Shown piece by piece: positions 20,884 to 51,385 of a DNA stretch of 64,000 nucleotides (positions are counted from its first letter, which is position 1; each line of letters begins with the position of its first letter). Origin of the DNA: Candidatus Nanoarchaeia archaeon (GTDB lineage Archaea; Nanobdellota; Nanobdellia; SCGC-AAA011-G17; JACPNG01); NCBI GenBank assembly GCA_028714375.1, contig JAQTMK010000001.1:136988-200987 (forward strand), read 5' to 3'. The notes under the pieces were generated by a model. The model was not told the DNA's origin and did no database searches. It saw only the letters and a program-made list of their open reading frames with translations. A program made the translations under genes and the position numbers.

Positions 20884-20907
20884 TTTTTCCTCTTTTTAAT
20901 ATTTTAT

Positions 20908-23339: not shown

Positions 23340-23368
23340 TAAATTAAAATAAAAAAGAAATATATAAA
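23337..23368 (-). promoter_or_regulatory. duplicated promoter/start element, copy 1 (includes ATG of gene 22860-23339)
   Basis: Identical 32 nt CATTAAATTAAAATAAAAAAGAAATATATAAA. On the coding strand this is TTTATATA (TATA-box-like) about 22-29 nt upstream of the ATG. Confidence 0.6.
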
Positions 23369-23386
23369 CTTAATTAAAAATGAACT

Positions 23387-23722
23387 TTAGTAATTTACTG
23401 CCTTTTTATATTTATTTGATTTTAGTGGGGGATGAATTAAGTCGGGAAGGACATTATAATAGAACTTTGCCCAATAATCTTGGATAATCCTGTGTGAGTG
23501 GCCATTAAAGAAGCCAAGTTTTCTTACTTCCTCTTGTAATTTTATTTCAAGATCCCTGAGATACCCATCTACGATTGGTATTGATGGGATTTCTTCCCCC
23601 CCAGAAGAATAAGATATGTCCCTTTTAAATTCTGCTAAGATTTTATTTCTATTCTGATCAATAAACTTACAAAACTCCTCATAACAACTTTTCTCTAAAC
23701 TTTTAAGATTTGAATTATCCAT
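23387..23722 (-). CDS. hypothetical cytoplasmic protein inside the pilin-like operon
   Basis: 111 aa, no signal peptide; preceded by copy 2 of the duplicated promoter. Confidence 0.45.
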   Translation of the reverse strand: MDNSNLKSLEKSCYEEFCKFIDQNRNKILAEFKRDISYSSGGEEIPSIPIVDGYLRDLEIKLQEEVRKLGFFNGHSHRIIQDYWAKFYYNVLPDLIHPPLKSNKYKKAVNY

Positions 23723-23751
23723 TAAATTAAAATAAAAAAGAAATATATAAA
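23720..23751 (-). promoter_or_regulatory. duplicated promoter/start element, copy 2 (includes ATG of gene 23387-23722)
   Basis: Exact 32-nt match to 23337-23368. Confidence 0.6.
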
Positions 23752-23760
23752 ATTATGTTT

Positions 23761-24120
23761 TTATGCACAAGAAACCGTACAACTGATTAACTCATTGCAA
23801 TGAACTCCACTCTTAACCACACTTGTTGTAGGATCTAAAATATCAAACTCTTTTTTGCAATAAGCAGAATCCGATGCAATGAATTTTTGACTATTTGTTC
23901 TTTGCTCTTCTTTAGCTGCATCACAATACTGATTGCAGAACTGAATTGCTAATGATCTGTCAGTTCCAGCTGTTCCCTGGAAAAATATTCCTTTTATCTT
24001 ATCAGTTGTTCCTTTAAATCCGTATAGGAAGAAAAATACAACTGCAACTAAAACAATAATTACGATAATCGCTATAATAATTGTATTAAGAGAAATTTCC
24101 GCTCCTTTTTTATTAAACAT
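23761..24120 (-). CDS. archaeal type IV pilin-like protein (canonical class III signal peptide)
   Basis: MFNKKG|AEISLNTIIIAIIVIIVLVAVVFFFLYGF: KG-A cleavage-site pattern and a long hydrophobic helix. The track start (24129) appears to be GTG; the ATG at 24120 is preferred. Confidence 0.65.
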   Translation of the reverse strand: MFNKKGAEISLNTIIIAIIVIIVLVAVVFFFLYGFKGTTDKIKGIFFQGTAGTDRSLAIQFCNQYCDAAKEEQRTNSQKFIASDSAYCKKEFDILDPTTSVVKSGVHCNELISCTVSCA

Positions 24121-24218
24121 ACATTTCACCTCTAATTCAATTAAAACTTCTTGTTTTATTTAAATGTTTTGGTATACTATTTATAAAGAATTTTAAAGCC
24201 TTATAAAAAGAAAATAGT

Positions 24219-24680
24219 TTACTTGAGTTTATCAGGTCCTCTTTCTAAGATTTTGTAAAATTGAACAGCCATAAATTGTGTGTTATTTAAGTTTATACTT
24301 GAAACCCCAAAGTTCCCCCCTCCCAATGTTCCATAATCACCAATCACTACTGCATCTGGTTGATCCCTATACGAAGAAAGTATCCCTTTTTCAAGAAGTT
24401 TTTCTAAATCAGACTTTAATCCATCTAAATTAGATTGATCTAATCCATCAGTTTCAATAAATTCATTATCCATGTACCCCCCAAGATAAGGGAATCTTTT
24501 TAGATCTTCTTTTGTGGATTTTGTGATTTCAGGAGTAGTCCGGTTGTAAACTTCCATGATTTGGGGGGCTCCAATTGGTTGGACTTTAAGACAATTTAAT
24601 CTTATATCTATAAACTGTTCATACTTCTCTCCATCCCGATCATCACAACAAAATATAATTTCTAAATCAAGTTTCTTCAT
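24219..24680 (-). CDS. hypothetical protein
   Basis: 153 aa, no recognisable motif; local GC looks higher than surroundings. Confidence 0.45.
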   Translation of the reverse strand: MKKLDLEIIFCCDDRDGEKYEQFIDIRLNCLKVQPIGAPQIMEVYNRTTPEITKSTKEDLKRFPYLGGYMDNEFIETDGLDQSNLDGLKSDLEKLLEKGILSSYRDQPDAVVIGDYGTLGGGNFGVSSINLNNTQFMAVQFYKILERGPDKLK

Positions 24681-24755: not shown

Positions 24756-25358
24756 TCACACACTAAATTGTTTAATTCTTTTTCTCCTTCTCCAGTACCA
24801 GTAAGCAACAGCGATTACAACAATACCAACAAGTAAACTGATAGTCTCAAAGTATTTATCAATAAAAGCGATGATAGGATTTCCAAAGAACATAATCAAG
24901 CCACCAACTAAGAAGAATCTCAATCCTCTTCCGATTATAGAATATATTATTAAAGTTCTTAATTTAATATAAAAGACACCAGAAGCAATTGTAAATACTT
25001 TATATGGAATTGGGGTAAAACCAGCAATGAAGATTGCCAAACCCCCATGTTTTTCAAATAATCTATGGACTTTGTCTATTTTTTCCTGTTTGAATAACTT
25101 ATTTAATATTGGTCTCCCACCAACATAACCAATCCCATATCCAAATATAGCCCCCAAAACACTACCAACTGTGCAGACTAAAGAAAACCATAAAGCGTTT
25201 TTAGGATCAGCTAAACATAATATAATCAGGAGAATGTCTGGTGGAACAGGAAAAAAACTTGATTCAATAAATGCTAAAACAAATAACCCCAAACTTCCTA
25301 AAGGCTGAAAAGTTAATTTTGTCCAGTCTACCAAACTAGTTATTAAACCCATAAACAA
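24756..25358 (-). CDS. DedA/YqaA (SNARE-associated, TVP38) family membrane protein
   Basis: FIESSFFPVPPDILLI and following TM pattern typical of DedA/YqaA proteins. Confidence 0.7.
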   Translation of the reverse strand: MFMGLITSLVDWTKLTFQPLGSLGLFVLAFIESSFFPVPPDILLIILCLADPKNALWFSLVCTVGSVLGAIFGYGIGYVGGRPILNKLFKQEKIDKVHRLFEKHGGLAIFIAGFTPIPYKVFTIASGVFYIKLRTLIIYSIIGRGLRFFLVGGLIMFFGNPIIAFIDKYFETISLLVGIVVIAVAYWYWRRRKRIKQFSV

Positions 25359-32630: not shown

Positions 32631-34664
32631 ATGAGGTTTGATAAATCTATAATTTTCATAACCCTATTAATTCTATTTTCGTTTTCAGTTTCAGCAGAAA
32701 TTGGAACAAGCCCTGACAATTGTAAGGGAAAAGACTTAACCGACCATATTTTTAATGATAATTTAATTACAAATGGTTGGAATAATTTATACCAGCAGAT
32801 GCAGGTTAATGATGTTCATACAATCAGCTTCAAAGGTATAAGCAATGACAATCCAGATCCAATAACAGTAACCTATTCTTTGTTTTACTGTAAAAGAGCA
32901 TGTGATTTGAACGGAGATGGAAAAGTCACTGCAGCAGATGCATGTTCAGATCATTTAGTTCTTCAACAAAAAACAGTCATAGAAGCAAATTCTAAAAAAG
33001 ATATTACTATAAATTTCAAGCCAGCTCAGGAAGGTTGTTATCAGTTAGATTGGGCTGTTGAAAAAATTGAAAACTCTCAGTGTTCTTATTTAGATAAAAC
33101 CTACTGTGAGGATTGTACATTTTTGGCTTATCTTGTAGATACTTCATGTAAGGCAGGTTCAACCCAAACAAGAAAATGTGGTTACTCTGATGTTGGAGAA
33201 TGTAGTTATGGAACTAAAACTTTAACCTGTACAGCCCAGTCACAGTTAATTGGTCCAACAAGTTATTGGAAATATGGAATTTGCATTGGAGCAACCTATC
33301 CAACAACAGAAATCTGTGACCAGAAAGACAATGACTGTGATGGTTTAATCGATGAAGACAATGTTTGTGAAGTTCCAGAATGTGAAGATGGAGAAACACA
33401 AACACAGCAATGTGGAATAACTGATGTTGGAATTTGCGAATACGGACATAAAGAAAAAATCTGTGAGAATGGCTCATGGGGAAATTGGGGTGATTGTATT
33501 GGTGCCATTAATCCTTCAACAGAAATATGTAATCAGTTAGATGATGATTGTGATGGGTTGATAGATGAAGGCGATGTTTGCCCTCCAGAAGAATGTTACA
33601 CTAATGATGACTGTGATAATGGTTTGTATTGTGATGGTGAGGAAATCTGCATAGATAACGAGTGTTATTCAGGAACAGAAATTAATTGTAATTTATACAA
33701 TATTCCAGGAATAAATACTTGCTACAATAGTCCAGACAGCAATCCATACACATTAGATTATAGAAATGCATTTACTTCAACCTGTAACGAAGATTTAGAT
33801 ATGTGTACAATTGGAAGTAGCATAATATCTCATATTTGTTATTATGGTTGTGGAGCAGAATGTATTGATTCTTGTGAAAAAACAGAATGTGATTACTTAG
33901 ATGGTTGCTATGGAAATGATTACTATGATTACAGTGATGTTTCAAACCTATGTAATTCCTGTTTATGTAGTCATAATGAATGTGGTCTTCCAGTAATTTC
34001 TGAAAATGATCCAAGATGTGAACAACCAGAATGTACAGAAGGAGATATTGATATTGTTTCCTGTGGTATGACCGATGTTGGAGAATGCTCTTATGGTCAG
34101 AAACAAAGAATATGTATTGATGAAGAATGGACAGACTGGAGCGAATGCGTTGGAAGTGTAAATCCAACAACAGAAATCTGTGACCAAAAAGACAATGACT
34201 GTGATGGTTTAATCGATGAAGACAAAGTCTGTGAAATATGTGTTCTGAATAAAACCAGACTTGATGGGGAAAATGGATTTATTGATCACATAAATGAATT
34301 TACAAATGAAGACTTTACAAAAAATAAGATTGATTTCAAGGCTTGGGTTTCAAAATCAGACAAGTACACAGGATATGTTATAGTTTCTGTGACAGGAACA
34401 ACCACAGATGGTGGAAGACTTTCTTTGAAATTAAAAGGTAAAGTAAGAAACGTCTATGAAAATACCTGTGAAGCATTTAACGTTGAAAATTCCTGGTGGA
34501 GTTTAGCTACCTACAGAGCACCAAATTCCAAGAAAACAGAAAAAATCCATCTGGATAGCATCTGGTATGAATGGAACAGGGAAACTAATTTGTTAAATGT
34601 CTACGGAATTGGTCCTGACATTGACTTTGAAATAAACAACATTGAAATTGAATCAAAGTACTGA
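32631..34664 (+). CDS. secreted Cys-rich protein with MopE-like 'putative metal-binding' repeats
   Basis: Signal peptide; three ~60-aa repeats each ending C(D/N)QKDNDCDGLIDED; many paired Cys. Confidence 0.6.
   Translation: MRFDKSIIFITLLILFSFSVSAEIGTSPDNCKGKDLTDHIFNDNLITNGWNNLYQQMQVNDVHTISFKGISNDNPDPITVTYSLFYCKRACDLNGDGKVTAADACSDHLVLQQKTVIEANSKKDITINFKPAQEGCYQLDWAVEKIENSQCSYLDKTYCEDCTFLAYLVDTSCKAGSTQTRKCGYSDVGECSYGTKTLTCTAQSQLIGPTSYWKYGICIGATYPTTEICDQKDNDCDGLIDEDNVCEVPECEDGETQTQQCGITDVGICEYGHKEKICENGSWGNWGDCIGAINPSTEICNQLDDDCDGLIDEGDVCPPEECYTNDDCDNGLYCDGEEICIDNECYSGTEINCNLYNIPGINTCYNSPDSNPYTLDYRNAFTSTCNEDLDMCTIGSSIISHICYYGCGAECIDSCEKTECDYLDGCYGNDYYDYSDVSNLCNSCLCSHNECGLPVISENDPRCEQPECTEGDIDIVSCGMTDVGECSYGQKQRICIDEEWTDWSECVGSVNPTTEICDQKDNDCDGLIDEDKVCEICVLNKTRLDGENGFIDHINEFTNEDFTKNKIDFKAWVSKSDKYTGYVIVSVTGTTTDGGRLSLKLKGKVRNVYENTCEAFNVENSWWSLATYRAPNSKKTEKIHLDSIWYEWNRETNLLNVYGIGPDIDFEINNIEIESKY
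33300..33361 (+). repeat. 62-nt intragenic direct repeat, copy 1
   Basis: CCAACAACAGAAATCTGTGACCAGAAAGACAATGACTGTGATGGTTTAATCGATGAAGACAA; one mismatch to the copy at 34164-34225. Confidence 0.8.
34164..34225 (+). repeat. 62-nt intragenic direct repeat, copy 2
   Basis: Near-identical to 33300-33361. Confidence 0.8.
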
Positions 34665-37924: not shown

Positions 37925-39007
37925 ATGAAAAAGCTATTAGCAATATTGGCTGTTTTAGTTTTAGCTGTTAGCCCAATCCTAGCAAATAGTATAGGAACTG
38001 GTATTGGCGTTGACATTGAAACTGAAGACTTTGTTCCAGAAATCTGGATGTGTGATGGTAGAGCTGTTTACGATGATAACATCGAACCAGGAAGAAACGG
38101 AGCTCCATCATTGAGTGAAAGATTAAACAACTATGCTTTCGAAGGAGAGCAACTTGAATATGACGTATTAGTCTTGGATAAAAACGGAATCAACAAAATT
38201 GAAGACGTTTACATGACAATTGGAACCTCACAAGGTACAGGAAACGACATTGAAGTTAACTGTGTATTAAATGAACTTGGACCAGAAGTTGATTCAAGTT
38301 GTAATGCATACATTGGAGAAGAAAAAGTAGAAGCTAAAAACTTTGATAACTGGAATCAGATTGCAGCAATGTACACATGTACTTTGACCGTTGAAACTCC
38401 AGAATCAATGTACGGTGAATACTGGGTAACAGCAGAAGTTACTGACCTAGATGGTTTGCAAAACTCAGTTGATGAAAACGAATACTGGTTCTTCAACCCA
38501 GTCATTGCATTGACTGTTGAAGGAGAATTAGCATTTGAAAACGTAAGACCAGGAACAAACTCCTACTCTGAAACACTTTTAGTAGGAAACGATGCTGATG
38601 AAGGATCTGGTGTTACATTAGATATGTACATCTCAGGAACCAACTTCTACGATTCAAGTAGCTCAGGTGCAATGTGCCCAACAAGTAACGTTTTAGAATT
38701 GGATAACTTCGCTTACTACGCAGTAAACGGAGCTTACACAACTGCAACCGTATCTGGAGTAAACCCAGCATGGGATCCAGATGATGAAGGTTACGTAGGA
38801 ATACCAGAAGGTAATACAATCAACCAGGCTAAAGAAATTGTCGGAACCGAGTTCTTCGGAGATGCAGGTTCATCCTACAATAACTGGAGAGGAAACACAT
38901 TAACTCCAGGTGCTGAAATGGCATTGACTTTCAGATTGGCATTACCAGAACCATGTAATGGTGACTTCGATACAGGTACCATTTACTTCTGGGGAGAAGC
39001 TATCTAA
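37925..39007 (+). CDS. secreted protein (hypothetical)
   Basis: Signal peptide MKKLLAILAVLVLAVSPILA; GGAGG ribosome-binding site. Confidence 0.55.
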   Translation: MKKLLAILAVLVLAVSPILANSIGTGIGVDIETEDFVPEIWMCDGRAVYDDNIEPGRNGAPSLSERLNNYAFEGEQLEYDVLVLDKNGINKIEDVYMTIGTSQGTGNDIEVNCVLNELGPEVDSSCNAYIGEEKVEAKNFDNWNQIAAMYTCTLTVETPESMYGEYWVTAEVTDLDGLQNSVDENEYWFFNPVIALTVEGELAFENVRPGTNSYSETLLVGNDADEGSGVTLDMYISGTNFYDSSSSGAMCPTSNVLELDNFAYYAVNGAYTTATVSGVNPAWDPDDEGYVGIPEGNTINQAKEIVGTEFFGDAGSSYNNWRGNTLTPGAEMALTFRLALPEPCNGDFDTGTIYFWGEAI

Positions 39008-39089
39008 GTAAAGGAAAATTTTTTTCCTTTTTTTATTTTATTTTTAAAAACTTAAAGTGGTGATGAAAGAAAGGGAGAACTATCAAAAA

Positions 39090-40190
39090 ATGAAATACAA
39101 AATCATCATATTCACTTTGATTGCTTTAACAGCAATATCATTTGTTATCTCATATGACCCAAGTTACACATATACATTATTATGTTTATCAAAAGGAGAA
39201 AGTGCAAACTTGACTGCACCTCAAAGTTATGTTTGTCAGACTACATCCTGTCCAAATTTTTGTGTTTATGATACACCAAGCGGAAAAAGATACAGCACAG
39301 ATTCAAGTATCTGTTTTGCTTTAGGTTTAAGTTGTGAACCTGGTGGTACAGGATCTATGGATGTAACTCCACCAACTCTAACATTAATTGATCCAATCCC
39401 AAACGCAGTTTATAATTCAAGATCAGTTTTATTTAATCTTACCTTAGATGAAAAAGGAGAAGTATCCTATTATGATAATATAAATGGGCAGGGAAGATGG
39501 TCTACATTATTTAGTGAAAGAAATTCTTACTCAAAAAAATTAAGCATGAAAGAAGGATTAAATGATCTAACCTTAAGTGCAAGAGATGAAGATGGAAACG
39601 AAGCAAATAAAACAATCAAATTTTACGTAGATTCAAAAGCACCAAAAATAAAGAAAACCTACCCTAAGAAAGGAACTTATGCAACAGGCGAGTTTACAGT
39701 TGAATACACAGAAGAAAACCTGCAGTCAGTTACTTTGGTAATAAACGGAGTAAATGTACAGAAAAAAATAGATTGTCCTTCAAGTTCAAAAAAAGCTTCA
39801 TGCATATTTAATGTTGATTTGACTCAGTATGATGGACAGGAAATTAATTATACATTCGTATTGGAAGATTTGTTAACTACATCTACACTAAAAACACCAG
39901 TAGCTGTAAAAGTTGATATAACTAATCCAAACCTGGCTGTGTTTGATCCTGATGATGGAGCTGTTTACAATAAATATGTTCCATTCAATATGCAGAGCAG
40001 TGAAACAGTAAAATTGCAATACAGGGATAACTCTGCACTAAGACCAACCTGGAAAACTTTATGTAGTAAATGTACTGTTTATAATAAAGTAATAAGTTTT
40101 GGCAGAGGTACACACAATGTTGATATCCAGGCAACTGACTTGGCTGGAAATCCAACCGGATATAATTATGATTTCACAGTAAGCTATTAG
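39090..40190 (+). CDS. secreted protein with Ig-like C-terminal modules shared with the downstream gene
   Basis: Start at MKYKIIIFTLIALTAISF (AGGGAG ribosome-binding site 12 nt upstream). C-terminal modules paralogous to 40234-43191. Confidence 0.5.
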   Translation: MKYKIIIFTLIALTAISFVISYDPSYTYTLLCLSKGESANLTAPQSYVCQTTSCPNFCVYDTPSGKRYSTDSSICFALGLSCEPGGTGSMDVTPPTLTLIDPIPNAVYNSRSVLFNLTLDEKGEVSYYDNINGQGRWSTLFSERNSYSKKLSMKEGLNDLTLSARDEDGNEANKTIKFYVDSKAPKIKKTYPKKGTYATGEFTVEYTEENLQSVTLVINGVNVQKKIDCPSSSKKASCIFNVDLTQYDGQEINYTFVLEDLLTTSTLKTPVAVKVDITNPNLAVFDPDDGAVYNKYVPFNMQSSETVKLQYRDNSALRPTWKTLCSKCTVYNKVISFGRGTHNVDIQATDLAGNPTGYNYDFTVSY

Positions 40191-40233
40191 TTTGCTGTGA
40201 TTTAATTTCAAAACCATGGAGGCCCCAATAAAA

Positions 40234-43191
40234 ATGAAAAAAAATATTTTTTTAATGTCTTTACTCTTTGCTCTGTCTTTGAGTTTAGTCTCAGCCGCAA
40301 CAACCTATCAGGTAGATAATAGAAATCTTGGTGGGAATGTTTGTAGTGATTTAGGAAATGAAACCTATTTTTGTACAATCCAGGCAGCTGTGAACTATTC
40401 AAGCAATGGTGATACTATTAATGTTTTAGGCGGAACATATTCAGAACAGATTATAATAAATAAAAATCTTAAACTAAAAAATACTGGAGATGCAAAAATT
40501 AATGCACCAGATTCAAGAAAAACATTTACATTTACAGAATCAACTAGCACATGGGACCCAATCATAATCGCTTATGGTGGATCTGAAATAAGTGGGGCAA
40601 TTTCAGGAAATGATGTTGTTAATGTTGATATTGAAGGTTTTGAAATTGATGGTTTAGATAAAACTCCATCCGGAAGATATGTTGGAATTTTATACAGAAA
40701 TGTTAAAGGAAACGTTAAAGAAAATACGATTGGACATATGAAATTAGATGGATATGAAACTTTTGGAGTTTCTGTTTACGGTAAATCGGATGTAGTAGTA
40801 GAAGGGAATGATATAAGTGGTTATTCTAGAGGTGGAATTGGAATAAATGGGGACTTAGGAACAAATCCAGATCCAAAAGCAATGGTTAAAAATAATAAAG
40901 TTTCAGGTCCAGGACTAGGAGTTCCAGTAACCTGGGCAGCAAACGGTATCCAATTTGGATATGGTACTACCGGAACAATCGAAAGTAACGAAGTAATTGG
41001 AAGCGGATGGTTGGGAGACGAATGGAGTGGAACCGGAATTTTAGTTGTTGATTGTGATGGAGTAAATATAATCTCTAATAAAGTATATAGCAATGAGCAA
41101 GCAATAGGTGTTGGTGAATTTTATGTTTCAGCTTCAAACATCGAAATAACCGGTAACGAGATTTATGATAATGAATGGGGGATTTCAATATTTAATGATA
41201 TAGAAGATGTAATCGTAACAGATAATAAAATTTTAAATTCAGTTTATGATGGTATTGATGTTTATAGTTATGGTTTAACAAGTTGGAGGGATTATACCGG
41301 CCATTATCCTTCAAAAGTTAAAATAAACTTTAATGAAATTATTGGGAATGGACCTGATGCACTTTGGGTTGAAGTTCCAGCTAATGAAACAATCGATGCA
41401 AAAAATAATTACTGGGGAGTTTGCGATGGTCCTTCTGGAATTGGTCCAGGAACCGGAGATAATATTAATGTAGTTTCTGGTAATGTAGACTATACCCCAT
41501 GGTTGGGAGTTTGTATTGATCATCAATCAATAGAAGACAATTGTGTTTTAGAAGTAGAAGATGTTGAATTCAAAACAAATCTTTCAAGTGTTGATTCATG
41601 TTCAACACCTTCAGTATGGTTACAGACAGATTCAAAAAATTATACTGCATCTAAACAATCAGGATTTTATGTTGCAACAATACCTGGTTCTGATTTAGTT
41701 GGTGGTTCCACAGTATCATGGAAGTTTGTTGTTGAAGATTGTGAAGATCATTTAGATGAAGGAGCAATTCAATCATTTTATGTAAACCAACTCACCGTTT
41801 TAACAGTAAATCCAGAAGATGCAGATGGACAAAATGGATGGTATGTAACAGAACCATTATTTACATTAAACAATCCAAGCAATTCAACAGCAGTTATAAG
41901 TTATAGATGGGATGGTCTAGGACCATTTGTATATAATGGAACTGAATTTGGGGTAGCAGATGCACCAAATGATGGAGATGGTTATTTAGAATTAACTTAC
42001 TGGTCAAATATTTGTGGGGGAGAACCAGAGCAGGTAAAAGAATTAAATGTGGATAGATTAGTCCCAACCATATCTGATGTTTATCCAGAAGAATCAAGCA
42101 TGATATCTACAATAAATCCAAAAATATCAGCATTTATTGATAAACAACAGCATCAGACAAATTCACAGATAAATGTTTCATCAATAATATTAACTGTAGA
42201 TGGAACAGTAATTAATGAATTTGAATATAGCAGCAACATAAGAAAAATAAATTATAATTCAAATTTAACTGAAGGATTCCACGAAGTGAAACTGGAAGTT
42301 TCAGATCTAGCAGGAAATAAAGGAGAAAAAATCTGGAACTTTACAATAAACACAAATCCAGTTGAATTAAGAATACTTAATCCACCTGAAGGAATCTTGA
42401 ACAGTAAAAGACAATTATTGAACATATCGCTGGGAGAAAAAGTAAAAAGTTTAGGATACACAGACTCAATTGATTCAACTCCAACTTACAAAAACTTATG
42501 CAGAAATTGTGATCATTATGATAAAATGAAGGCATTTAGCGAAGGTCAGCATAATCTGACAGTAACTGCAGTAAGTTATTCAGGAGCTGAATTTAATCAG
42601 AGTGTATCCTTCTTTATAGATTCAATCGCACCAAAGATACCATACACAACTCCAAAAGGAGGAACATTTGGTAACGGAAACTTTACAGTAAGATACACTG
42701 AAGAAAATCCTGTTGAAGTAAATCTATATTATGATTACAATCAGACAGGAGTTTTCCAGAAAGTAACAAAAACAGATTGTCCAGCTGGAAAAAATAAGGA
42801 CTGTACCTTTGTTGTAGAAGGAGTAATGAATGAAAAATTAGATTATTACTTTGAAATCATCGATATTTCAGGATTTAACACAACATCAAAAGTAATAACC
42901 ACAACAATGGATACCATACCACCAGTGATGACTAAGTTAGGTTCACCTTTGAAGGAAACAAACTATACAAAGAAGGTGCCATTTGATATTGAAGTTAGTG
43001 AACCCGTAGATATTTATTACAAAGATAACAAAGGAAAAAATCCAGACAGATGGACAAGGTTAGCTTCAAAAGTAACAGAGTATAAAAAGTCAGTAAGTTT
43101 CAGCAAAGGCCCTCATGAAGTTGAAATAAAAATAATTGACAAGGCAGGAAATACTGAAATTACCGACCCAATAAACTTTGAGGTTATCTAA
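40234..43191 (+). CDS. large surface protein with parallel beta-helix (pectate-lyase-like) repeats and Ig-like modules
   Basis: Signal peptide; repeated beta-helix-like NxxSG/GxGI segments (NDISGYSRGGIGINGDLG, NKVSGPG, ITGNEIYDNEWGISIFN); C-terminal modules homologous to 39090-40190. Confidence 0.6.
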   Translation: MKKNIFLMSLLFALSLSLVSAATTYQVDNRNLGGNVCSDLGNETYFCTIQAAVNYSSNGDTINVLGGTYSEQIIINKNLKLKNTGDAKINAPDSRKTFTFTESTSTWDPIIIAYGGSEISGAISGNDVVNVDIEGFEIDGLDKTPSGRYVGILYRNVKGNVKENTIGHMKLDGYETFGVSVYGKSDVVVEGNDISGYSRGGIGINGDLGTNPDPKAMVKNNKVSGPGLGVPVTWAANGIQFGYGTTGTIESNEVIGSGWLGDEWSGTGILVVDCDGVNIISNKVYSNEQAIGVGEFYVSASNIEITGNEIYDNEWGISIFNDIEDVIVTDNKILNSVYDGIDVYSYGLTSWRDYTGHYPSKVKINFNEIIGNGPDALWVEVPANETIDAKNNYWGVCDGPSGIGPGTGDNINVVSGNVDYTPWLGVCIDHQSIEDNCVLEVEDVEFKTNLSSVDSCSTPSVWLQTDSKNYTASKQSGFYVATIPGSDLVGGSTVSWKFVVEDCEDHLDEGAIQSFYVNQLTVLTVNPEDADGQNGWYVTEPLFTLNNPSNSTAVISYRWDGLGPFVYNGTEFGVADAPNDGDGYLELTYWSNICGGEPEQVKELNVDRLVPTISDVYPEESSMISTINPKISAFIDKQQHQTNSQINVSSIILTVDGTVINEFEYSSNIRKINYNSNLTEGFHEVKLEVSDLAGNKGEKIWNFTINTNPVELRILNPPEGILNSKRQLLNISLGEKVKSLGYTDSIDSTPTYKNLCRNCDHYDKMKAFSEGQHNLTVTAVSYSGAEFNQSVSFFIDSIAPKIPYTTPKGGTFGNGNFTVRYTEENPVEVNLYYDYNQTGVFQKVTKTDCPAGKNKDCTFVVEGVMNEKLDYYFEIIDISGFNTTSKVITTTMDTIPPVMTKLGSPLKETNYTKKVPFDIEVSEPVDIYYKDNKGKNPDRWTRLASKVTEYKKSVSFSKGPHEVEIKIIDKAGNTEITDPINFEVI

Positions 43192-43341
43192 ACCTCTTCT
43201 TTTTTTATCTATTTTTAATTAATACTATCAAATAATAGAATTTACGATAATATCTATTTCTTTCCATAAATGTTTATATATAATCTTGGAGTGGTATTAA
43301 CTTAAAAGTGGTGTTATAAATTAAATACAGGGAGTGGTAAA

Positions 43342-43998
43342 ATGAGGAAAATAACAGTATTCATATTGGTTTTAGCATTGCTTTTGATATTTCCAGTAAG
43401 CGCAAAACTTACGGGACAAGCTAGAGGACAGGCTGTAATCAACGTTGACGTTGATGAAGGTAGCACAGAAGTAATCTCAAGAACTGTTTGGGTTAAGAAT
43501 GTAAATGATATTCCGGTTAATGTCGCAATTATTGCAATAGATGATATTGAAGACAGAACAGAAATAGAAGAACCTTCTTTTATACTTCAGCCAGGCCAGG
43601 AAAAAACAGTTAAATATTTATTGAAAATTTCCCAGCCAGGAAATTATTATGGAAAATTAAATATTGGTTTTTCTCCAGCAGATGGTTCTAAAGAAAATGG
43701 AGTAGGAATCTCATTAGCTATAACCGTTATTGCAGATGGTGAGGGTGAAGAATTTGTAAGTCCAGAACCTAATACTGAAGAAATCCCAGAAGATACAGAA
43801 GAAACTCCAGAAGACACAACCGATATCCCTCAGGAAGAAGACACAACTGATGGAGAAGGAGTAGATGTATTCGGAGGAGGACAAAATCCTGTAACACCTA
43901 AAACAAACATAAATTGGCCACTCATAATTTTCATAGGTTTACTTTTAATCGTAATCGCAGCAGGGGTGTTTGCTTTTTTAAGGGGAGGAAAAAAATGA
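43342..43998 (+). CDS. secreted protein with C-terminal TM anchor and basic tail
   Basis: Signal peptide; acidic PEDTEETPEDT linker; C-terminus WPLIIFIGLLLIVIAAGVFAFLRGGKK. Confidence 0.5.
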   Translation: MRKITVFILVLALLLIFPVSAKLTGQARGQAVINVDVDEGSTEVISRTVWVKNVNDIPVNVAIIAIDDIEDRTEIEEPSFILQPGQEKTVKYLLKISQPGNYYGKLNIGFSPADGSKENGVGISLAITVIADGEGEEFVSPEPNTEEIPEDTEETPEDTTDIPQEEDTTDGEGVDVFGGGQNPVTPKTNINWPLIIFIGLLLIVIAAGVFAFLRGGKK

Positions 43999-46900
43999 AG
44001 AAAGTAGTTTTTTTATTTGCTTTGTTATTAACAGTTTCATGTGTAAGTGCTTGGGATGTAGCTTATGTGGTTACTAACCCATCAACTGCAGCACAGGAAC
44101 CAATAACAGTGTTGGAAAACGAGGGATATAATGTAGAAGTTATTGATGATTCTGCATTACTAACAACAAATTTCAGTAATTATGATTTAATTGTTGTTGC
44201 AGATCAGAACTTTCCATATCCAGAAAGAATTCCAGTAACCTCCCACAGTACAGTAATTTTAAGTTCTAATGATGGTGATGTTTTAACTTGGGGTCTAAGT
44301 ACCTCAGTTGCAGATCAGACAAGCAGTCAACCAGAAAAAGTAGTTAATAATGATCCTACCAGTCCAATAACAGAAGGACTGCCCTCTGAAATTCAGGTTT
44401 ATACAACTGGAGGAGTTTCAGCAGGCCTGTCATACTTACCTTCTTCAGATAAAGCTGGAAAAATGAAGGTTATTGCTTCAACTTATTTCAGCAGCAATAT
44501 AAATGATGGAATAATTGCAACAGCATCTCCAGGAGATGTTTTAAAAATCTACAATAGTGGTTGGAAATACACAACCGTAAATTCAAGAATATGTTATTTT
44601 GGTATTAATACTCCAGCATACTGGACAAGCGATGCAGAAACATTATTCATTAATTGTGCAACATGGTCAGCATTAGGAGTAGATAATGATAATGATGGTT
44701 TCTACTCAGATGAAGACTGTGATGATACAAACGCAGATATTAATCCAGATGCAGAAGAAACCTGTAACGGAGTAGATGATAATTGTGATTTAATTATCGA
44801 TGAAGAAAACTCATTAGGATGTACTGATTATTACTATGATTTTGATCAGGATACTTATGGAGTATTCTTATCTAAGTGTTTATGTTCACCAAACGCATTT
44901 TATGATTCAGAAACAAACGATGACTGTAATGATAACAATATAAATATACATCCAGACGCACAGGAATTGTGTAATGGAATAGACGATAGTTGTGATGATA
45001 TCATTGATGAAGACTTAATTGAACCTTTGTCAGACAACCAAAAAGGAATCTGTAAAAATTCTGTAAAAATCTGTGAAGGAACTTCAGGATGGACAAATCC
45101 AGATTACACAGAACTGGAAGATTATGAAAATCCAGAATTAAGTTGTGATGGTTTAGATAATAACTGTGACGGAACAGTTGATGAAGATTTAGCAACAACT
45201 TATTATAAAGATTTAGATGAAGATACCTATGGAAGTAAAACAGTAACAATCCAGTCTTGTGATATTGTGGATGGTTATGTTGAAAACAATGATGATTGTA
45301 ATGATAATAATGCAGATATAAGTCCAGACGGAATTGAAGAATGTAATGGTATTGATGACAACTGTGACGGAGCCATCGATGAAGATGATATCTGTGAAAT
45401 AACAATTTATTATTGTGATGCAGATGCAGATTTACATTTAAGCTTGACACAATCAGGAACTTGTGATACCTATAACTGTGTTCCAACAGGATGTTCAACA
45501 ACACCCGGAGATGATTGTAATGACCATAATGCAAATATGTATTTAGGAAAAGCAGAAACCTGTGATGGTCTGGACAATGACTGTGATTATGTTATTGATG
45601 ATGGTGTAAAAACAACTTATTATCAGGATAAGGATGGAGATCTTTACGGAAATTCAGGAGTAACCAAACAGGCATGTTCTGCTCCAACAGGATATTTATT
45701 GGATAAGACAGATTGTAATGATAACTTTGCTACAATTCACCCAGGAGCAACAGAAACCTGTAATGGAATTGACGATGATTGTGATGGTTTGATTGATGAG
45801 GGAGGAGTTTGTGCAGTAAAGACTTACTATTGTGATGATGATTCAGACAGTTATCTAAGCTTAGATATCTCAGGAACATGTAACACCTATAATTGTGTTC
45901 CAGAAGACTGTTCAGAAACCAGCGGAACAGATTGTAACGACGATGATTCAGATATGTATCCAGGAAACATAGAAGTTTGTGATAACTTAGACAATGACTG
46001 TGATGGTTTAATTGATGAATCTCTTACACAAATAACAACTTGTGGACTAGGAGAATGTTCAGACAACACAGGAATAGAAACTTGTTCAGCAGGAGAATGG
46101 ATTAATGATACTTGTGATCCTTATGCTGGAGCAGTAGCTGAGACTTGTGATGGTTTAGATAACAACTGTGATGGTGAAACAGATGAAGGAGTAACTACAG
46201 AATATTATGAAGATTCAGATAATGATACCTATGGAGATGCATTAAGCATTTTAGATGCATGTTCTCTTCCAGCAGGTTACTCTGTAAATAATCTAGATTG
46301 TGATGATTCAAATGCAAATATGTATCCAGGAAATCCAGAAGTTTGTGATGGTGATGATAATGATTGTGATGGAACAATTGATGAAGATTTATCTGCACCA
46401 TTAAATACAAACCAAAATGGAGTATGTTTTGAATCAAATCAAACCTGTCAGGGAGAATTAGGATGGATCGATACTTATTCAACAATCTCAACTTATCAAG
46501 AAACAGAAGAAGCCTGTGACAGTTTAGATAATGATTGTGATGGAATAGTTGATGATGGTGTTAAAACAACATTCTATGAAGATTCAGATAATGATACTTA
46601 TGGAAATGCAACAAGCTCACAGGATGTATGTACTAAACCAACAGGTTATGTTTTAGATGATACTGATTGTGATGATAGTCAAAATACAATTTATCCTGGA
46701 GCTACAGAAGTTCCATACGATTCAATTGACCAAGATTGTAGTGGTGCTGATTTAACTGATGTGGATGCAGACGGATATGATTATACTACAGATTGCAATG
46801 ATAATGATCCAGATGTAAATCCTGGAGAAACAGAATCCTGTAACACAATTGATGATGATTGTGACGGAACAATTGATGAAGAAGATTCAACAGGATGTTC

Positions 46901-48476
46901 AGTATATTATTACGATGAAGATGCTGATGCCTATGGTACAAATGATGACAAATGTTTATGTGCAATAACTGGATATTATACAGCCTCAGTAAATGGAGAC
47001 TGTGATGATACAGCAGCTTCAATTAACCCAGGAGTTTCAGAAATCATCTACAATACAATAGATGATGATTGTAATTCACATACATTAGATGATGATTTAG
47101 ACCAGGATGGATATAATCATGATGTAGATTGTGATGAAACTAATAATAAGATTCATCCAGGTGCAACAGAGATTCCATACAATGGAATAGACGAAAATTG
47201 TAATGGATGGGATTTGGTTGATGTTGATAATGATGGTTACAGTGCTCCGCAAGTTGGAGGAACAGATTGTAACGATAATAATCCAGCAATAAATCCAGGA
47301 GTTTTAGAGATTCCATACGATGGAATCGATAATGATTGTAATCCATTAACTTTGGATGAAGATTTAGATCAGGATGGCTACAACCATAATGTAGATTGTG
47401 ATGATTTAGATCCATTAGTGCACCCAGGAGCAACAGAAATTCCAAATAATGGAAAAGATGATGATTGTAATTCACATACATTAGATAATGATGCAGATCA
47501 GGATGGAATTCAGGATCCAGATGATAATTGTGTAATTCTTTACAATCCAAATCAGGAAGATCAGGACCATGACGGAATTGGAGATGTTTGTGATTCAGAC
47601 ATAGATGGCGATGGAATATTAAACGAAGATGATAATTGTATAACAACTCCAAACCCAGACCAATTAGATATTGACTCAGATGGAATTGGAGATGTCTGTG
47701 ATTTGGATAAAGATGGAGATGGAATAAATAATAATAAAGATAATTGTCAGAGCATCTTTAACCCAGAACAGGAAGATGTAGATCATGATGGTTTAGGAGA
47801 TGTCTGTGATGATGATAACGATAATGATGGAATTCCAGACAGCGAAGATAACTGTTCAGATGTTTACAATCCAGATCAGTTAGATACAGATTCAGACGGT
47901 TTGGGAGATAAATGTGATGACGATGATGATAACGATGGTCTTGATGACCACGACGATAACTGTCCAATAAATTACAACCCAGGCCAGGAAGACAGAGACA
48001 GCGATAGGAAAGGAGACGTCTGTGATGTAGATTGGGATAATGATAGTGTTCCAGATGCATCAGATAACTGTCCATATATTAAAAACAGAGACCAAGCCGA
48101 TATAGACAAAGACGGAATTGGAAACGTGTGTGATGATGTAGACGGTAGAATAAAAGAAATAATCAGCCATGAATTTAGCCTAAGCTCAGTTTCATTGGAA
48201 GATGAAAAAATAAATCCTGGTGAAAACCTTGACTTATATGTAAAATTAAAGAACAGAGGAAACCAAGACGAAGACGGTATTAAAGTTCAGGCAACAATAA
48301 TGGAGACTGGCCAAATATCAACTCCAAGTTATGTTGACCTGGAAAAAGGAGAGTCTCAGTCAACATGGATAACCATAAAAACAACCAAAATAAAACCAGG
48401 AACATACACATTAAGAGTAATGGCAGAAAACAGCAAAGAACATGATGTAGCTTACCTAACCTTTAAGGTTATGTAA
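43995..48476 (+). CDS. giant secreted protein (1493 aa): MopE-like Cys-rich metal-binding repeats, thrombospondin type-3 Ca-binding repeats, CARDB-like C-terminal domain
   Basis: Start at MKKVVFLFALLLTVSCVSA (AGGGGAGG ribosome-binding site; ATGA overlap with the upstream gene). At least 15 repeats of the type DCDDTNADINPDAEETCNGVDDNCD(G)LIDE; about 10 TSP3-like repeats (DNCxxxxNPDQxDxDxDGxGDxCD); C-terminal INPGENLDLYVKLKNRGNQDEDGIKV beta-sandwich. Confidence 0.65.
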   Translation: MKKVVFLFALLLTVSCVSAWDVAYVVTNPSTAAQEPITVLENEGYNVEVIDDSALLTTNFSNYDLIVVADQNFPYPERIPVTSHSTVILSSNDGDVLTWGLSTSVADQTSSQPEKVVNNDPTSPITEGLPSEIQVYTTGGVSAGLSYLPSSDKAGKMKVIASTYFSSNINDGIIATASPGDVLKIYNSGWKYTTVNSRICYFGINTPAYWTSDAETLFINCATWSALGVDNDNDGFYSDEDCDDTNADINPDAEETCNGVDDNCDLIIDEENSLGCTDYYYDFDQDTYGVFLSKCLCSPNAFYDSETNDDCNDNNINIHPDAQELCNGIDDSCDDIIDEDLIEPLSDNQKGICKNSVKICEGTSGWTNPDYTELEDYENPELSCDGLDNNCDGTVDEDLATTYYKDLDEDTYGSKTVTIQSCDIVDGYVENNDDCNDNNADISPDGIEECNGIDDNCDGAIDEDDICEITIYYCDADADLHLSLTQSGTCDTYNCVPTGCSTTPGDDCNDHNANMYLGKAETCDGLDNDCDYVIDDGVKTTYYQDKDGDLYGNSGVTKQACSAPTGYLLDKTDCNDNFATIHPGATETCNGIDDDCDGLIDEGGVCAVKTYYCDDDSDSYLSLDISGTCNTYNCVPEDCSETSGTDCNDDDSDMYPGNIEVCDNLDNDCDGLIDESLTQITTCGLGECSDNTGIETCSAGEWINDTCDPYAGAVAETCDGLDNNCDGETDEGVTTEYYEDSDNDTYGDALSILDACSLPAGYSVNNLDCDDSNANMYPGNPEVCDGDDNDCDGTIDEDLSAPLNTNQNGVCFESNQTCQGELGWIDTYSTISTYQETEEACDSLDNDCDGIVDDGVKTTFYEDSDNDTYGNATSSQDVCTKPTGYVLDDTDCDDSQNTIYPGATEVPYDSIDQDCSGADLTDVDADGYDYTTDCNDNDPDVNPGETESCNTIDDDCDGTIDEEDSTGCSVYYYDEDADAYGTNDDKCLCAITGYYTASVNGDCDDTAASINPGVSEIIYNTIDDDCNSHTLDDDLDQDGYNHDVDCDETNNKIHPGATEIPYNGIDENCNGWDLVDVDNDGYSAPQVGGTDCNDNNPAINPGVLEIPYDGIDNDCNPLTLDEDLDQDGYNHNVDCDDLDPLVHPGATEIPNNGKDDDCNSHTLDNDADQDGIQDPDDNCVILYNPNQEDQDHDGIGDVCDSDIDGDGILNEDDNCITTPNPDQLDIDSDGIGDVCDLDKDGDGINNNKDNCQSIFNPEQEDVDHDGLGDVCDDDNDNDGIPDSEDNCSDVYNPDQLDTDSDGLGDKCDDDDDNDGLDDHDDNCPINYNPGQEDRDSDRKGDVCDVDWDNDSVPDASDNCPYIKNRDQADIDKDGIGNVCDDVDGRIKEIISHEFSLSSVSLEDEKINPGENLDLYVKLKNRGNQDEDGIKVQATIMETGQISTPSYVDLEKGESQSTWITIKTTKIKPGTYTLRVMAENSKEHDVAYLTFKVM

Positions 48477-48487
48477 GTTTTATTTTT

Positions 48488-49645
48488 TTATTTAATATTT
48501 TTATTTTCTTTTACAAATACTAACATTATAAATGCTAAAACAGCTAAACCCATTGAAAAATAAAATGGAGCCATAAAATCTATTTTATCCCATAACAATC
48601 CGGCAATCAGCGAAGCTGGTAAGGCAACTATACCCAGTAACATCTGATACCCGCCTAAAACACTTGCTTTGTAATTTTCAGGAGCCAATTCAGAAACAAA
48701 TGTTTTTTGCACTGGATCTAATGCTCCCCTATGTAATCCATATAAAACAAATGCAAGAATAATTCCTACATAACTGTTAAGGAAAATAAAACTCAAACAA
48801 ACCAAAATCCACAAAACAAAAGATAAACCTAAAACATTCTTTCTTCCTATCTTGTCAGCCATTTTACCAAATGGTAATGCAGATACTGAAGCAAATGCTG
48901 CAAAGATTAAATATAAGACAGAAACTAATCCAACACTAAACCCAAAATCTTTTGCAAATACCAATAAGAATGAATAGCTGAAAGCACCCAAAGAAAAAAT
49001 ACTTCCTAAAACTAAGAATAACCTTAGATTATTATTTATATCTTTGAAATGAATTCCTCTATAGATCTTGATATGATTTGATTTTTTTTCCTTTATAATA
49101 AATATTATTAACAAAACAGCAATCAAAGATGGAACTGCAGCAACTAAAAATAATTTTTTATATCCAAGTAAACCAAATAACAAAATGCTTGCTATAACAC
49201 CACATAATCCCCCTAATTTGTCCATTGCTTCTAAAATTCCAAAACTCTTGCCTCTATCCTTATGATTTGAAACATTGGCGATTAAAGCATCTCTTGGAGC
49301 ATCTCTCATTTTTCCAAATCTGTCTAAAATTTTAAAGGGGATTAAGTGTTGCCACATTGTGGAAAAAGCATACCCAACTCTTGAAAAAGAAGCAAATAAA
49401 TATCCTAACCAGACAAATATCTTTCTTTTCTTGATTCTGTCTGAAATATAACCCGATAAAGCCTGAGATATTGAGACTAAAGCATTTCCCAATCCATCTA
49501 TTAATCCCAAAGTAGCCATGCTTGCCCCCAAAAATGTTGTGACAAACAAAGGCCAGATAGGAGTTATCATATCTGAACCTAGATCATTTAAGAAAGAAGC
49601 CAAAGAAAAAGTTCTAATTACCCTCTTTTTGTATTTCTTGTCCAT
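48488..49645 (-). CDS. major facilitator superfamily (MFS) transporter
   Basis: 12-TM pattern; MFS loop motif GYISDRIKKRK between TM2 and TM3. Confidence 0.8.
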   Translation of the reverse strand: MDKKYKKRVIRTFSLASFLNDLGSDMITPIWPLFVTTFLGASMATLGLIDGLGNALVSISQALSGYISDRIKKRKIFVWLGYLFASFSRVGYAFSTMWQHLIPFKILDRFGKMRDAPRDALIANVSNHKDRGKSFGILEAMDKLGGLCGVIASILLFGLLGYKKLFLVAAVPSLIAVLLIIFIIKEKKSNHIKIYRGIHFKDINNNLRLFLVLGSIFSLGAFSYSFLLVFAKDFGFSVGLVSVLYLIFAAFASVSALPFGKMADKIGRKNVLGLSFVLWILVCLSFIFLNSYVGIILAFVLYGLHRGALDPVQKTFVSELAPENYKASVLGGYQMLLGIVALPASLIAGLLWDKIDFMAPFYFSMGLAVLAFIMLVFVKENKNIK

Positions 49646-49801: not shown

Positions 49802-51385
49802 ATGAGAAAGCTAGCAATAATGTTTTTAGCAGTATTTGTTGTTTTGGCTGGTATAGCTTCAGCAACAATAGTTAACACTGTTGACGCTAACGATGCATAT
49901 GTAGACACAGGCATTGATGGGTGTACAAGTGATAGTTGCTATATATTTTACGAAGACGTAACTGGGAAAATTTCTTTAACCACAGATTTTACAGGAACAA
50001 TCGCATGGGATTTAACTGGTAATCCATCTTGGTTAAGCAAATCATCTGCAATAGGAACCACAATATATCTAACAGGGACTCCTTCAAGTGATGATTATGA
50101 TTTTAAGGGAACCACTATTACAGTTACAGATGGTAATGTAAGTGAGACCTACTCAATCAGAGTTTACCCAGACTTCTGTGATAGAGAAGATGATGACCTT
50201 AAAGTATCAAATAGTTATGTATCAATTGGAAGTTTAGACTTCGATGATGATGACTATACAATTTTTGATAAGGTAGATACTTCAATTGAAGATGTAAATG
50301 CAGAAAAAGAAGATCTTGTTGATGTAAATGCACAGGTATGCTTATATAATGTAAATTCAAATGAAGAGATTGATTGTTGGAGTGCTTCAGAAGAAATTGA
50401 CATTGATGAAGATGAATCAGAAGATTTTGACATCAGCTTTGAGATTCCAAACGTGGAAGAAATTGGGGATAAAAAAGATTACAAACTCTTTGCAGTTATC
50501 CAAGCAGATGCAGACGATTCAGAAATACCAGTTTGTATGTTTGAATCCGAAGATATAAATATTGAAAGGGAAAAGTACGATGTATCAATTACAGATGCAT
50601 TCATAAACCCAACTTCAGTAAAAGCAGGAGAAACATTTGATGTAACTGTTGATTTTGAAAACGTTGGAAGTAAAGACGATGATAGTGTATATGTTGTTGT
50701 TAAGGAAAATACATTAGGACTTAACGAAAAGTCAACAACTTATGACCTAGAAAATTACGATGGTAATGACAACAGCGCTACAGCAAGATTTACTTTAAGT
50801 GTTCCAGAAGATGCAGCTAATAAACAATACTCAATTGAAGTTATCGTTTACTTTGATGATGGAGACGGTACTGATTCAGAGTTTGTTATGTTGGAAGTTA
50901 AAGGACAAAGCACAGCAACACCAGTAGTTCCAAAAGACTCAATTTTATTGAGTGCAGGGGAAGCAGTTGCTGAAGGTAATGCATTTAGCTTGCCAGTTAC
51001 AGTAACAAACAAAGCTGAAAGTCAGGAATTAAGTGTTGAATTAACCAATTTAGATGATTGGGCAACAGCTGGAAGTGCTAAAACTCAGTTACTTGACAAA
51101 GATCAGAGTACAACTTTCTACTTTTACATAACACCTAATGAAGGAATTACTGGAACCAGAACAGCTACAATAAACGTAAGATCTGAATCTGGAAACATTT
51201 TGAAAACACAGTCAGTTTCCTTGAAGTTAGGAGAAGAAGTAGTTGAAGAAGATGTAAACGTGAGCGGAGGCATCAAAGACTTTTTCAGTAACAATAGCAA
51301 AGTCTTATGGATAATTGGAGACATAGTCTTGATTATTCTGGCTGTAGTATTGCTAAAGTTCTTGTTTACTAAGAAGAAGAAATAA
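49802..51385 (+). CDS. cell-surface protein with CARDB-like domains and C-terminal TM anchor plus KKKK tail
   Basis: Signal peptide; acidic regions; CARDB-like INPTSVKAGETFDVTVDFENVGSKDDDSVYVVVKE; C-terminus VLWIIGDIVLIILAVVLLKFLFTKKKK. Confidence 0.55.
   Translation: MRKLAIMFLAVFVVLAGIASATIVNTVDANDAYVDTGIDGCTSDSCYIFYEDVTGKISLTTDFTGTIAWDLTGNPSWLSKSSAIGTTIYLTGTPSSDDYDFKGTTITVTDGNVSETYSIRVYPDFCDREDDDLKVSNSYVSIGSLDFDDDDYTIFDKVDTSIEDVNAEKEDLVDVNAQVCLYNVNSNEEIDCWSASEEIDIDEDESEDFDISFEIPNVEEIGDKKDYKLFAVIQADADDSEIPVCMFESEDINIEREKYDVSITDAFINPTSVKAGETFDVTVDFENVGSKDDDSVYVVVKENTLGLNEKSTTYDLENYDGNDNSATARFTLSVPEDAANKQYSIEVIVYFDDGDGTDSEFVMLEVKGQSTATPVVPKDSILLSAGEAVAEGNAFSLPVTVTNKAESQELSVELTNLDDWATAGSAKTQLLDKDQSTTFYFYITPNEGITGTRTATINVRSESGNILKTQSVSLKLGEEVVEEDVNVSGGIKDFFSNNSKVLWIIGDIVLIILAVVLLKFLFTKKKK

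Follow-up and report, generated by a model that had tools for sequence, protein, structure and literature searches.

The closest described relatives of the protein considered here are the giant 'MopE-related' surface proteins of bacteria, such as the type IX secretion system (T9SS) cargo of Bacteroidota and the MYXO-CTERM proteins of Myxococcota. They are likewise secreted and acidic and carry long arrays of the PF11617 motif, often joined to TSP_3, lectin, PKD or Ig-like domains. The archaeal protein is encoded in a 64,000-nucleotide (nt) stretch of DNA (the window) from a metagenome-assembled genome (MAG) of a Candidatus Nanoarchaeia archaeon (contig JAQTMK010000001.1), and its 1493 amino acids (aa) are divided into an N-terminal head, a MopE-motif region, an array of thrombospondin type-3 (TSP3) repeats and a C-terminal CARDB-like domain. 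Thousands of bacterial proteins share its MopE array, at 30–40% identity over the repeat region. However, these end in T9SS (PF18962), gliding-associated (PF13585) or MYXO-CTERM sorting domains, none of which is present in the archaeal protein, and they lack both its DPANN-specific head, predicted to resemble ThuA and the class-I glutamine amidotransferases (GATase1), and its small membrane partner.

The TSP3 part has two further points of comparison. In thrombospondin and COMP, the 'calcium wire' (3fby, 1yo8, 1ux6) has the same alternating N- and C-type Asp-rich motifs and the same paired Cys, and its fold depends on bound Ca2+. The archaeal array has only six 36-aa units, and no lectin-like domain, EGF or coiled coil accompanies it, a CARDB-like domain being found instead. 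The best NCBIfam hit (E=5.9e-59) is to a prokaryotic TSP3-repeat surface protein, MtsC of Myxococcus (NF047638), a thrombospondin-like MYXO-CTERM protein named for cell-cell cohesion. This match covers the TSP3 part only and reaches 200 bits, below the equivalog cut-off of 350, and the archaeal protein has no MYXO-CTERM.

The Nanoarchaeia (placed in Nanobdellota/Nanobdellati) belong to the DPANN archaea, which are thought to live attached to host cells by a mechanism that is largely unknown. A search of the literature on the protein's domains and on DPANN thrombospondin-like or Cys-rich proteins found no description of this protein family. It is proposed here, with moderate confidence, that the gene encodes a Sec-exported, non-enzymatic, adhesin-like stalk protein of the DPANN cell envelope, stabilized by Ca2+ and disulfides, which carries a ThuA/GATase1-like head and works with an upstream small membrane protein and with neighboring envelope and surface-layer (S-layer) genes.

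Architecture of the Giant Protein

An earlier note on this DNA had read the gene as encoding a secreted protein of 1493 aa with a signal peptide, and the open reading frame (ORF) bears this out, its product beginning with a hydrophobic segment that ends in VSA. An NCBI counterpart of identical sequence, on a 382-kb contig, is named 'MAG: MopE-related protein [Candidatus Nanoarchaeia archaeon]'; the protein is an adhesin-like surface protein of a known class, already annotated 'MopE-related' by NCBI. The Nanoarchaeia MAGs STA_79 and STA_51 contain two orthologues, P0002 (1636 aa) and P0055 (1322 aa). The start codon is correctly assigned to the ATG at 43995, since a Shine-Dalgarno-like site (GGGGAGGA) lies ahead of it and the two orthologues share the MKK-hydrophobic signal sequence at their N-termini. 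Cleavage of the signal peptide (MKKVVFLFALLLTVSCVSA) after VSA was judged by eye, without a dedicated predictor. Apart from this N-terminal signal, no transmembrane (TM)-like segment was found in the 1493-aa protein; therefore, with its sole strongly hydrophobic segment at the N-terminus, the product is taken to be exported and to lack a membrane anchor. Despite Cys16, the signal peptide is not read as that of a lipoprotein, as P0055 has no Cys at that position. Asp accounts for 18.6% of the whole protein, which contains 83 Cys. After removal of the signal peptide, the net charge is −313 and 82 Cys remain; the head has two, the MopE region 68, the TSP3 array 12 and the CARDB-like domain none, so that the numbers are even throughout.

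The domain content given in the earlier note is correct, with matches far beyond chance. The TSP_3 family (PF02412) is matched with 117.8 bits (cut-off 25, E=1.5e-34), although the ten or so TSP3 repeats first counted are in fact six units with a 108-nt period. Each unit has two Cys, and six N-type motifs (DNCxxxxNPxQxDxDxDGxGDxC) alternate with six short C-type DxDxDG loops. Searches against the PDB returned COMP (3fby, E=1.5e-48) and TSP-2 (1yo8, E=8e-46), with the Asp ligand motifs conserved. Because of this homology to the thrombospondin and COMP repeats, the TSP3 part is very likely to bind Ca2+ and to fold around it. The C-terminal lectin-like globe of thrombospondin is absent, since the alignments cover repeats only (for example, residues 81–313 of 551 in 3fby).

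The MopE-motif region is considerably less regular. PF11617 is recognized in 16 stretches (358.3 bits, cut-off 27, E=1e-109). The earlier note described at least 15 tandem repeats of about 40 aa with four Cys each; the array itself is confirmed, but it comprises 13 full and three half motifs, spaced 42–124 aa from start to start, with three or two Cys. At least four types of heterogeneous Cys-rich module can be distinguished: units of ~65–70 aa of the form 'YYxDxDxDxYG ... C ... DCxD...C...C', two 'YYCD...' units of ~70 aa, three 'NQxGxC...GW...CDGLDNNCDG' units of ~55 aa, and a run of ~43-aa units with two Cys each, where Pro-Tyr takes the place of the middle Cys. Eight of the 13 full motifs have three Cys, and the other five are of the two-Cys 'PY' variant, the form present in MopE*. 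Once aligned, the 13 fit the pattern DCxD...PG..E.C.G.DDDCDG, in which D3, C4, E17, D23 and C26 are invariant and the conserved polar residues are Asp, Asn and Glu. Acidic loops of the DxDxD(G) type (for example YYEDSDNDTYG and DLDQDGY) alternate with the Cys motifs in a fixed register. The motif profile also gave a weak match (E=0.17) to the large subunit of acyloxyacyl hydrolase (PDB 5w7a_B, residues 50–78; pattern RDCNDSDKTVYPG....D.NCNG), which, if true, would be the sole ordered structure of this motif type. PF11617 is found in other DPANN proteins as well, and in a second gene of the window (32631..34664).

The C-terminal domain scores 22.5 bits with CARDB (PF07705) in a scan of the whole protein, where the cut-off is 22.7, and 29.0 bits (E=1.3e-6) if the scan is restricted to the last 110 residues; many other Ig-like families match it weakly. 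An Ig-like domain at this end, where the earlier note placed a CARDB-like beta-sandwich, is supported, as is the description of the protein as repeat-built and (very likely) calcium-stabilized. A hidden Markov model (HMM) of this domain places it at the extreme C-terminus in ten other proteins, whereas about nine TM-anchored proteins with the head have it 58–142 residues before the end, just ahead of a linker and a TM helix. The domain is therefore membrane-proximal where an anchor exists, which suggests that the head is distal.

The Head Domain

The identification of the head, left as a 'globular region' by the earlier note, is the most informative part of the analysis. Residues 20–235 have no match in Pfam or NCBIfam, the best being ThuA at E=0.04. 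The ThuA HMM (PF06283) reaches 14.4–14.7 bits on the head, against a cut-off of 33.4, and matches only two of 39 family members, weakly. A single-sequence word-index search with the head returned nothing, and its profile version only nine short proteins. In contrast, an HMM built from the three orthologous heads and run against 1.84 billion representatives retrieved 578 clusters at E<=1e-3, and 306 with the threshold set at E<=1e-10. The head starts no more than 40 residues from the N-terminus, right after the signal peptide, in 134 of the 151 proteins inspected. The tails that follow are highly varied, the whole proteins being 165 to 2858 aa long; of the 151, 55 carry a TM helix and a basic tail at their C-terminus and only 10 contain more than one MopE motif. 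All organism-named members come from Woesearchaeota, Pacearchaeota, Nanoarchaeota, a 'DPANN group archaeon' or an 'uncultured archaeon', and they are called 'hypothetical' or named after their other domains. Many members of ~380 and ~670 aa (P0127, P0133, P0136, P0140, P0186, P0213, P0241 and others) end in '(L)EPGKGYW.KA....W.Y'.

An AlphaFold2 model of the head from a 39-sequence alignment has a predicted local distance difference test (pLDDT) score of 93.8 and a predicted template modeling (pTM) score of 0.92; a run on three sequences only (pLDDT 42.7) was discarded. The modeled fold is similar to the ThuA-like and GATase1-like folds of 1t0b, 4jqs and 3rht, and Foldseek agrees. The structural matches include non-catalytic copies of this fold in IFT52, OST48 and GH42 enzymes. 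A conserved Cys-His-Glu triad was looked for in the 39-sequence alignment and none was found, as no column exceeds 33% Cys, 46% His or 49% Glu. The only recurrent Cys are Cys181 and Cys202, which covary (both in 11 sequences, one alone in 1, neither in 27), a pattern that fits a disulfide in an extracellular domain. On the evidence of the model, the head is a predicted non-enzymatic ThuA/GATase1-like module and a common N-terminal element of DPANN surface proteins. Its sequence likeness to the known non-catalytic domains of this kind (1t0b, 4jqs, 3rht and the 'GIFT'-type domains of GldG, IFT52 and OST48) is not significant and, differently to them, it is extracellular, disulfide-bearing and always N-terminal in DPANN surface proteins.

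The Partner Gene and the Envelope Gene Cluster

The giant gene is preceded by a small gene for a membrane-anchored partner, whose stop codon overlaps the start of the giant gene (ATGA). A homologue of the partner lies directly 5' of a head-domain gene, with a 4-nt overlap or a 1-nt gap, in eight loci: the window, both orthologous loci, L005 (marine Pacearchaeota), L008, L010 and L012 (metagenome contigs) and L013 (Woesearchaeota). The partner proteins are homologous across these loci, with 27–31% identity (E 1e-7 to 1e-14).

Further upstream, three co-directional genes of the window have orthologues in the same order in L001, L002 and L013, and the putative S-layer gene downstream is kept next to the giant gene in L001 and L002. 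Close relatives keep the full order of 360-aa protein, Big_13 protein, beta-helix protein, small TM protein, giant protein and ~530-aa protein, the identities of the cluster genes being 41–67% compared with 68–69% for LeuRS. The surface role that the earlier note suggested for the protein, as an adhesin, fits this context, in which the giant gene belongs to a conserved cluster for secreted and membrane-anchored products and has a putative S-layer gene alongside. In the window and L001, a convergent major facilitator superfamily (MFS) transporter gene (48488..49645, −) lies between the giant and S-layer-like genes; it is absent from that position in L002.

The first gene of the cluster (37925..39007, +) encodes a 360-aa protein that has no family match; relatives of it are found 5' of the head gene in L005, L008, L011, L012 and L013. 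Its conservation across loci ranges from 26 to 56%, the highest value, to the Woesearchaeota copy, being above those of other cluster genes. PDB sequence searches with this protein and with the 218-aa partner returned nothing significant. Small, extremely acidic low-complexity proteins, with a 'GIGGGLGI.LEV'-like start after the signal and a TM end, are encoded between the 360-aa-like and small-partner genes in L005 (4858-5307), L008 (1773-2261), L011 (2486-2977) and L012 (2860-3384), and the mature N-terminus of the 360-aa protein of the window has the similar sequence 'SIGTGIGVDIE'.

In loci with short head proteins, a head protein of ~380 aa is followed by a CBM96 protein and then by a cadherin/Big_9/LTD protein of 1200–1400 aa. 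In L013 the head and a cadherin/LTD adhesin form a single fused protein, and in L005, L008, L010 and L012 the two are encoded by adjoining genes. Such fusion and fission link the head functionally to adhesin-like stalks. The tail cassettes seen with the head are MopE/TSP3 (here), cadherin/Big_9/LTD, vWA, tandem-95 repeats and giant Cys-rich arrays. It is possible, although this broader idea is put forward only tentatively, that the head and the small membrane-anchored beta-sandwich protein are an undescribed two-component surface-display module, widespread in DPANN, in which a constant pair mounts interchangeable stalk or adhesin cassettes for host attachment; the fusion and fission just described are in its favor.

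A Proposed Calcium-Stabilized Stalk and its Alternatives

How would such a protein work? Between the head and the CARDB-like domain, the chain is predicted to form an extremely acidic stalk of ~1150 residues, in which MopE-type Cys-knot modules are followed by the six TSP3 units and all 80 Cys can pair. The stalk would fold around many Ca2+ ions, the TSP3 units as in thrombospondin and COMP, and the DxDxDG-type loops and CxGxDDDCDGxxDE motifs of the MopE modules probably likewise. Some 40 disulfides would lock it into a stiff, protease-resistant spacer. The C-terminus is most likely cell-proximal, because the CARDB-like domain is membrane-proximal in the TM-anchored paralogues, and either the envelope or the co-translated small membrane protein may hold it through non-covalent contacts. 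In this arrangement, the conserved head would be displayed distally, as a binding module for a host cell or another surface.

Several points weigh against this proposal. All the sequences come from MAGs and the evidence is computational only. To our knowledge, binding of Ca2+ by PF11617 motifs has never been shown and no solved structure contains the motif in ordered form; we also know of neither a ligand nor a host for the protein. When the whole protein is scanned, CARDB matches only marginally, and a profile comparison between the CARDB-like domain and the beta-sandwich of the partner gave a probability of only 44%. The polarity of the stalk, with the head distal and the CARDB-like domain proximal, is drawn by analogy with TM-anchored paralogues; it would be the opposite if the partner instead docks the head, which is equally possible. 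Finally, no anchor is present in the protein itself, so that cells could simply release it to the medium.

The last point leads to an alternative that appears unlikely, namely that the protein is shed as a polyanionic buffer of Ca2+ or other divalent cations, or as a matrix or biofilm component that organizes the matrix or sequesters cations. The lack of a membrane anchor or known sorting signal would be expected of such a protein, as would its charge of −313 and its predicted Ca sites (~25 or more), and thrombospondins and COMP are themselves matrix proteins. However, a gene for a membrane-anchored partner lies immediately 5' in eight loci, TM anchors are present in paralogues that have this head and a CARDB domain, and the terminal domains match a housekeeping gene in their level of conservation, an argument for specific interactions.

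Is the head instead the handle? In a reversed arrangement, which we hold to be no better than the release of the protein and likewise improbable, the head would dock onto the co-translated small membrane protein, while the variable stalk and the CARDB domain project outward as the functional end. The strict adjacency of head and partner genes in eight loci, across Woese-, Pace- and Nano-archaeal lineages, agrees with this arrangement, and so does the occurrence of the head as one constant module among many tails, as expected of an anchoring module (SLH, dockerin). Nevertheless, 55 of the 151 family representatives are TM-anchored at the end opposite the head, including P0128, which keeps the partner gene, and in TM-anchored representatives the CARDB-like domain is found close to the membrane.

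Less probable still is a role of the protein as a MopE-like extracellular scavenger of copper or another transition metal, each Cys-rich repeat binding a metal ion for uptake or detoxification. The very strong match to a family that Pfam names 'Cu-binding_MopE / putative metal-binding motif' favors it, and the earlier note spoke of MopE-type metal binding. MopE and MopE* of Methylococcus capsulatus (2vov) and CorA of Methylomicrobium album do have in common with the archaeal protein a motif of ~30 residues (DxDCxDxxxxIxPGAxExxxDGxDxxCDG). Among solved structures, the profile of the 13 motifs matched one protein, MopE* (2vov), at residues 15–43 (E=2e-8), and the PDB sequence match to 2vov was limited to chain residues 6–45 or 15–43. 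This is the one motif copy of MopE*, of the two-Cys form, and it falls within the first 46 residues, which are invisible in the crystal (PMC3423442). The high-affinity Cu(I) site is formed by His132, His203 and kynurenine130 (PMC3423442). The known copper site is therefore a different one from the motif, and in the archaeal protein nothing similar to the beta-sandwich core of MopE/CorA, with its His-His-kynurenine Cu(I) site, was found.

Weak Cu(II) binding by MopE* does depend on its first 24 residues (PMC3423442), which overlap the motif match at 15–43. However, the 928-residue MopE region of the archaeal protein contains only 10 His and four Trp, the even Cys counts suggest disulfides rather than free thiolate ligands, and the conserved ligand-like residues, Asp, Asn and Glu, are ligands of hard cations such as Ca2+. 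The neighboring genes encode envelope proteins, not metal transporters or chaperones. Judged from its sequence, the MopE region is probably a Ca2+-binding, disulfide-locked stalk and not a copper-binding element, and a 'Cu-binding_MopE' annotation does not imply copper binding.

Evolution of the Repeat Region

The combination of MopE and TSP3 repeats, thought unusual for an archaeon in the earlier note, is not rare, since PF11617 and PF02412 occur together in 18 of the best 120 database hits, three of which are Nanoarchaeia proteins. A profile search of genome contigs with the three orthologues returned only the two known MAGs. Identity to these orthologues is 73 and 70% in the head and 67 and 63% in the CARDB-like domain. 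In the MopE region it falls to 48 and 27%, with 152 and 318 gap positions. The earlier note had called for a comparison of repeat number among related genomes, and the number does vary, with 13 full and three half motifs in the giant protein and 17+1 and 4+1 in the other two. The middle of P0055 carries a 131-aa Cys-rich cassette that is absent from the giant protein and 59% identical to residues 328–455 of a second secreted protein of the window (32631..34664), and this sharing points to an exchange of modules between paralogous surface-protein genes. The plastic middle and conserved ends suggest that cassettes are gained, lost and swapped in the center of the stalk, with the ends under constraint.

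The DNA of the repeats had been described as highly similar and the gene, for that reason, as a likely hotspot of recombination and assembly errors. Neither statement holds, as the copies have diverged to 60–81% identity in DNA, no exact direct repeat in the gene is longer than 31 nt, and Tandem Repeats Finder reports a single weak array of 108 nt (2.2 copies, 76% matches). Collapse or expansion during assembly is unlikely given these diverged copies and a full-length orthologue in an independently assembled MAG that is colinear with the giant protein over residues 1–1492 (54% identity). An assembly artefact or decaying pseudogene can hardly be credited, although the protein is repetitive, derives from a short-read MAG and is recorded in its exact form on a single contig only, because, besides the divergence of the copies and the colinear orthologue, the reading frame is intact over 4.5 kb, a second orthologue has the same ends and the Cys counts are even in each region.

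Other Features of the Window

The features of the giant gene and its surroundings are collected in Table 1. The TATA-box-like element was identified by sequence reading, and both it and the oligo-T stretch would be the putative signals of a unit formed by the partner and giant genes. A scan for bacterial sigma-70 promoters was not informative, with fewer sites than in shuffled sequences; the model is bacterial and the organism archaeal.

Archaeal RadA and RPA-like genes are present in the window. The RadA gene (14728..15681) adjoins a gene for a D-Ala-D-Ala-ligase-like ATP-grasp protein (13595..14665, −), in an archaeon with no known murein wall. Nine co-directional ORFs of 122–488 aa (18602..24680, −), which match neither Pfam nor PHROG, occupy a stretch of strongly negative guanine-cytosine (GC) skew, flanked by the RPA-like gene (17591..18583) and a gene for a VTT-domain membrane protein (24756..25358).

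Table 1. Coordinates of the giant gene, its domains and associated features in the window.
Feature	Position	Strand	Description and basis
Second secreted Cys-rich protein gene	32631..34664	+	677 aa, 54 Cys, PF11617 half-motifs
Three co-directional upstream cluster genes	37925..43191	+	360-aa secreted protein; 377-aa Big_13/Glucodextran_B protein; 991-aa beta-helix (NosD-like) + Big_13 protein
Hairpin and T-run	43180-43206		After the preceding gene, 5' of TTTATATA
TATA-box-like element, archaeal (TTTATATA)	43272..43279	+	5' of the two-gene unit; putative
Small partner gene	43342..43998	+	218 aa; signal peptide, ~110-aa beta-sandwich, acidic linker, TM helix, basic tail
Giant secreted repeat protein gene	43995..48476	+	1493 aa; uninterrupted ORF, Pfam domains, 100% identity and coverage to NCBI entry
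Sec-type signal peptide	43995..44051	+	Likely cleaved after VSA; hydrophobic N-terminal segment, same signal peptide in orthologues
Head domain	44052..44699	+	Residues 20-235; predicted non-catalytic ThuA/class-I glutamine-amidotransferase-like fold; unannotated DPANN surface-protein family
MopE-motif region	44700..47483	+	Residues 236-1163 (928 residues); 13 full and 3 half PF11617 motifs, 68 Cys
TSP3 repeat array	47484..48140	+	Residues 1164-1382; six 36-aa units, 12 Cys
CARDB-like beta-sandwich	48141..48473	+	Residues 1383-1493; CARDB match, no membrane anchor after it
T-rich stretch, archaeal oligo-T terminator-like	48477..48500	+	Right after the stop of the giant gene, common to the convergent MFS gene; putative
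Downstream cluster gene, PACE-CTERM putative S-layer family	49802..51385	+	527 aa; NF033506 144.9 bits (cut-off 110), signal peptide, C-terminal TM anchor

Concluding Remarks

Taken alone, the giant protein is one more large, probably calcium-binding, repeat surface protein, useful mainly as a correctly delimited example. The head family is of wider reach, being without a Pfam entry and comprising hundreds of clusters whose named members are all DPANN, with a confident fold model, an invariant partner gene and a conserved seat beside a putative S-layer gene. Together, the head family and its partner offer a means of locating gene clusters for the envelope and for attachment in DPANN genomes, and they may merit follow-up.

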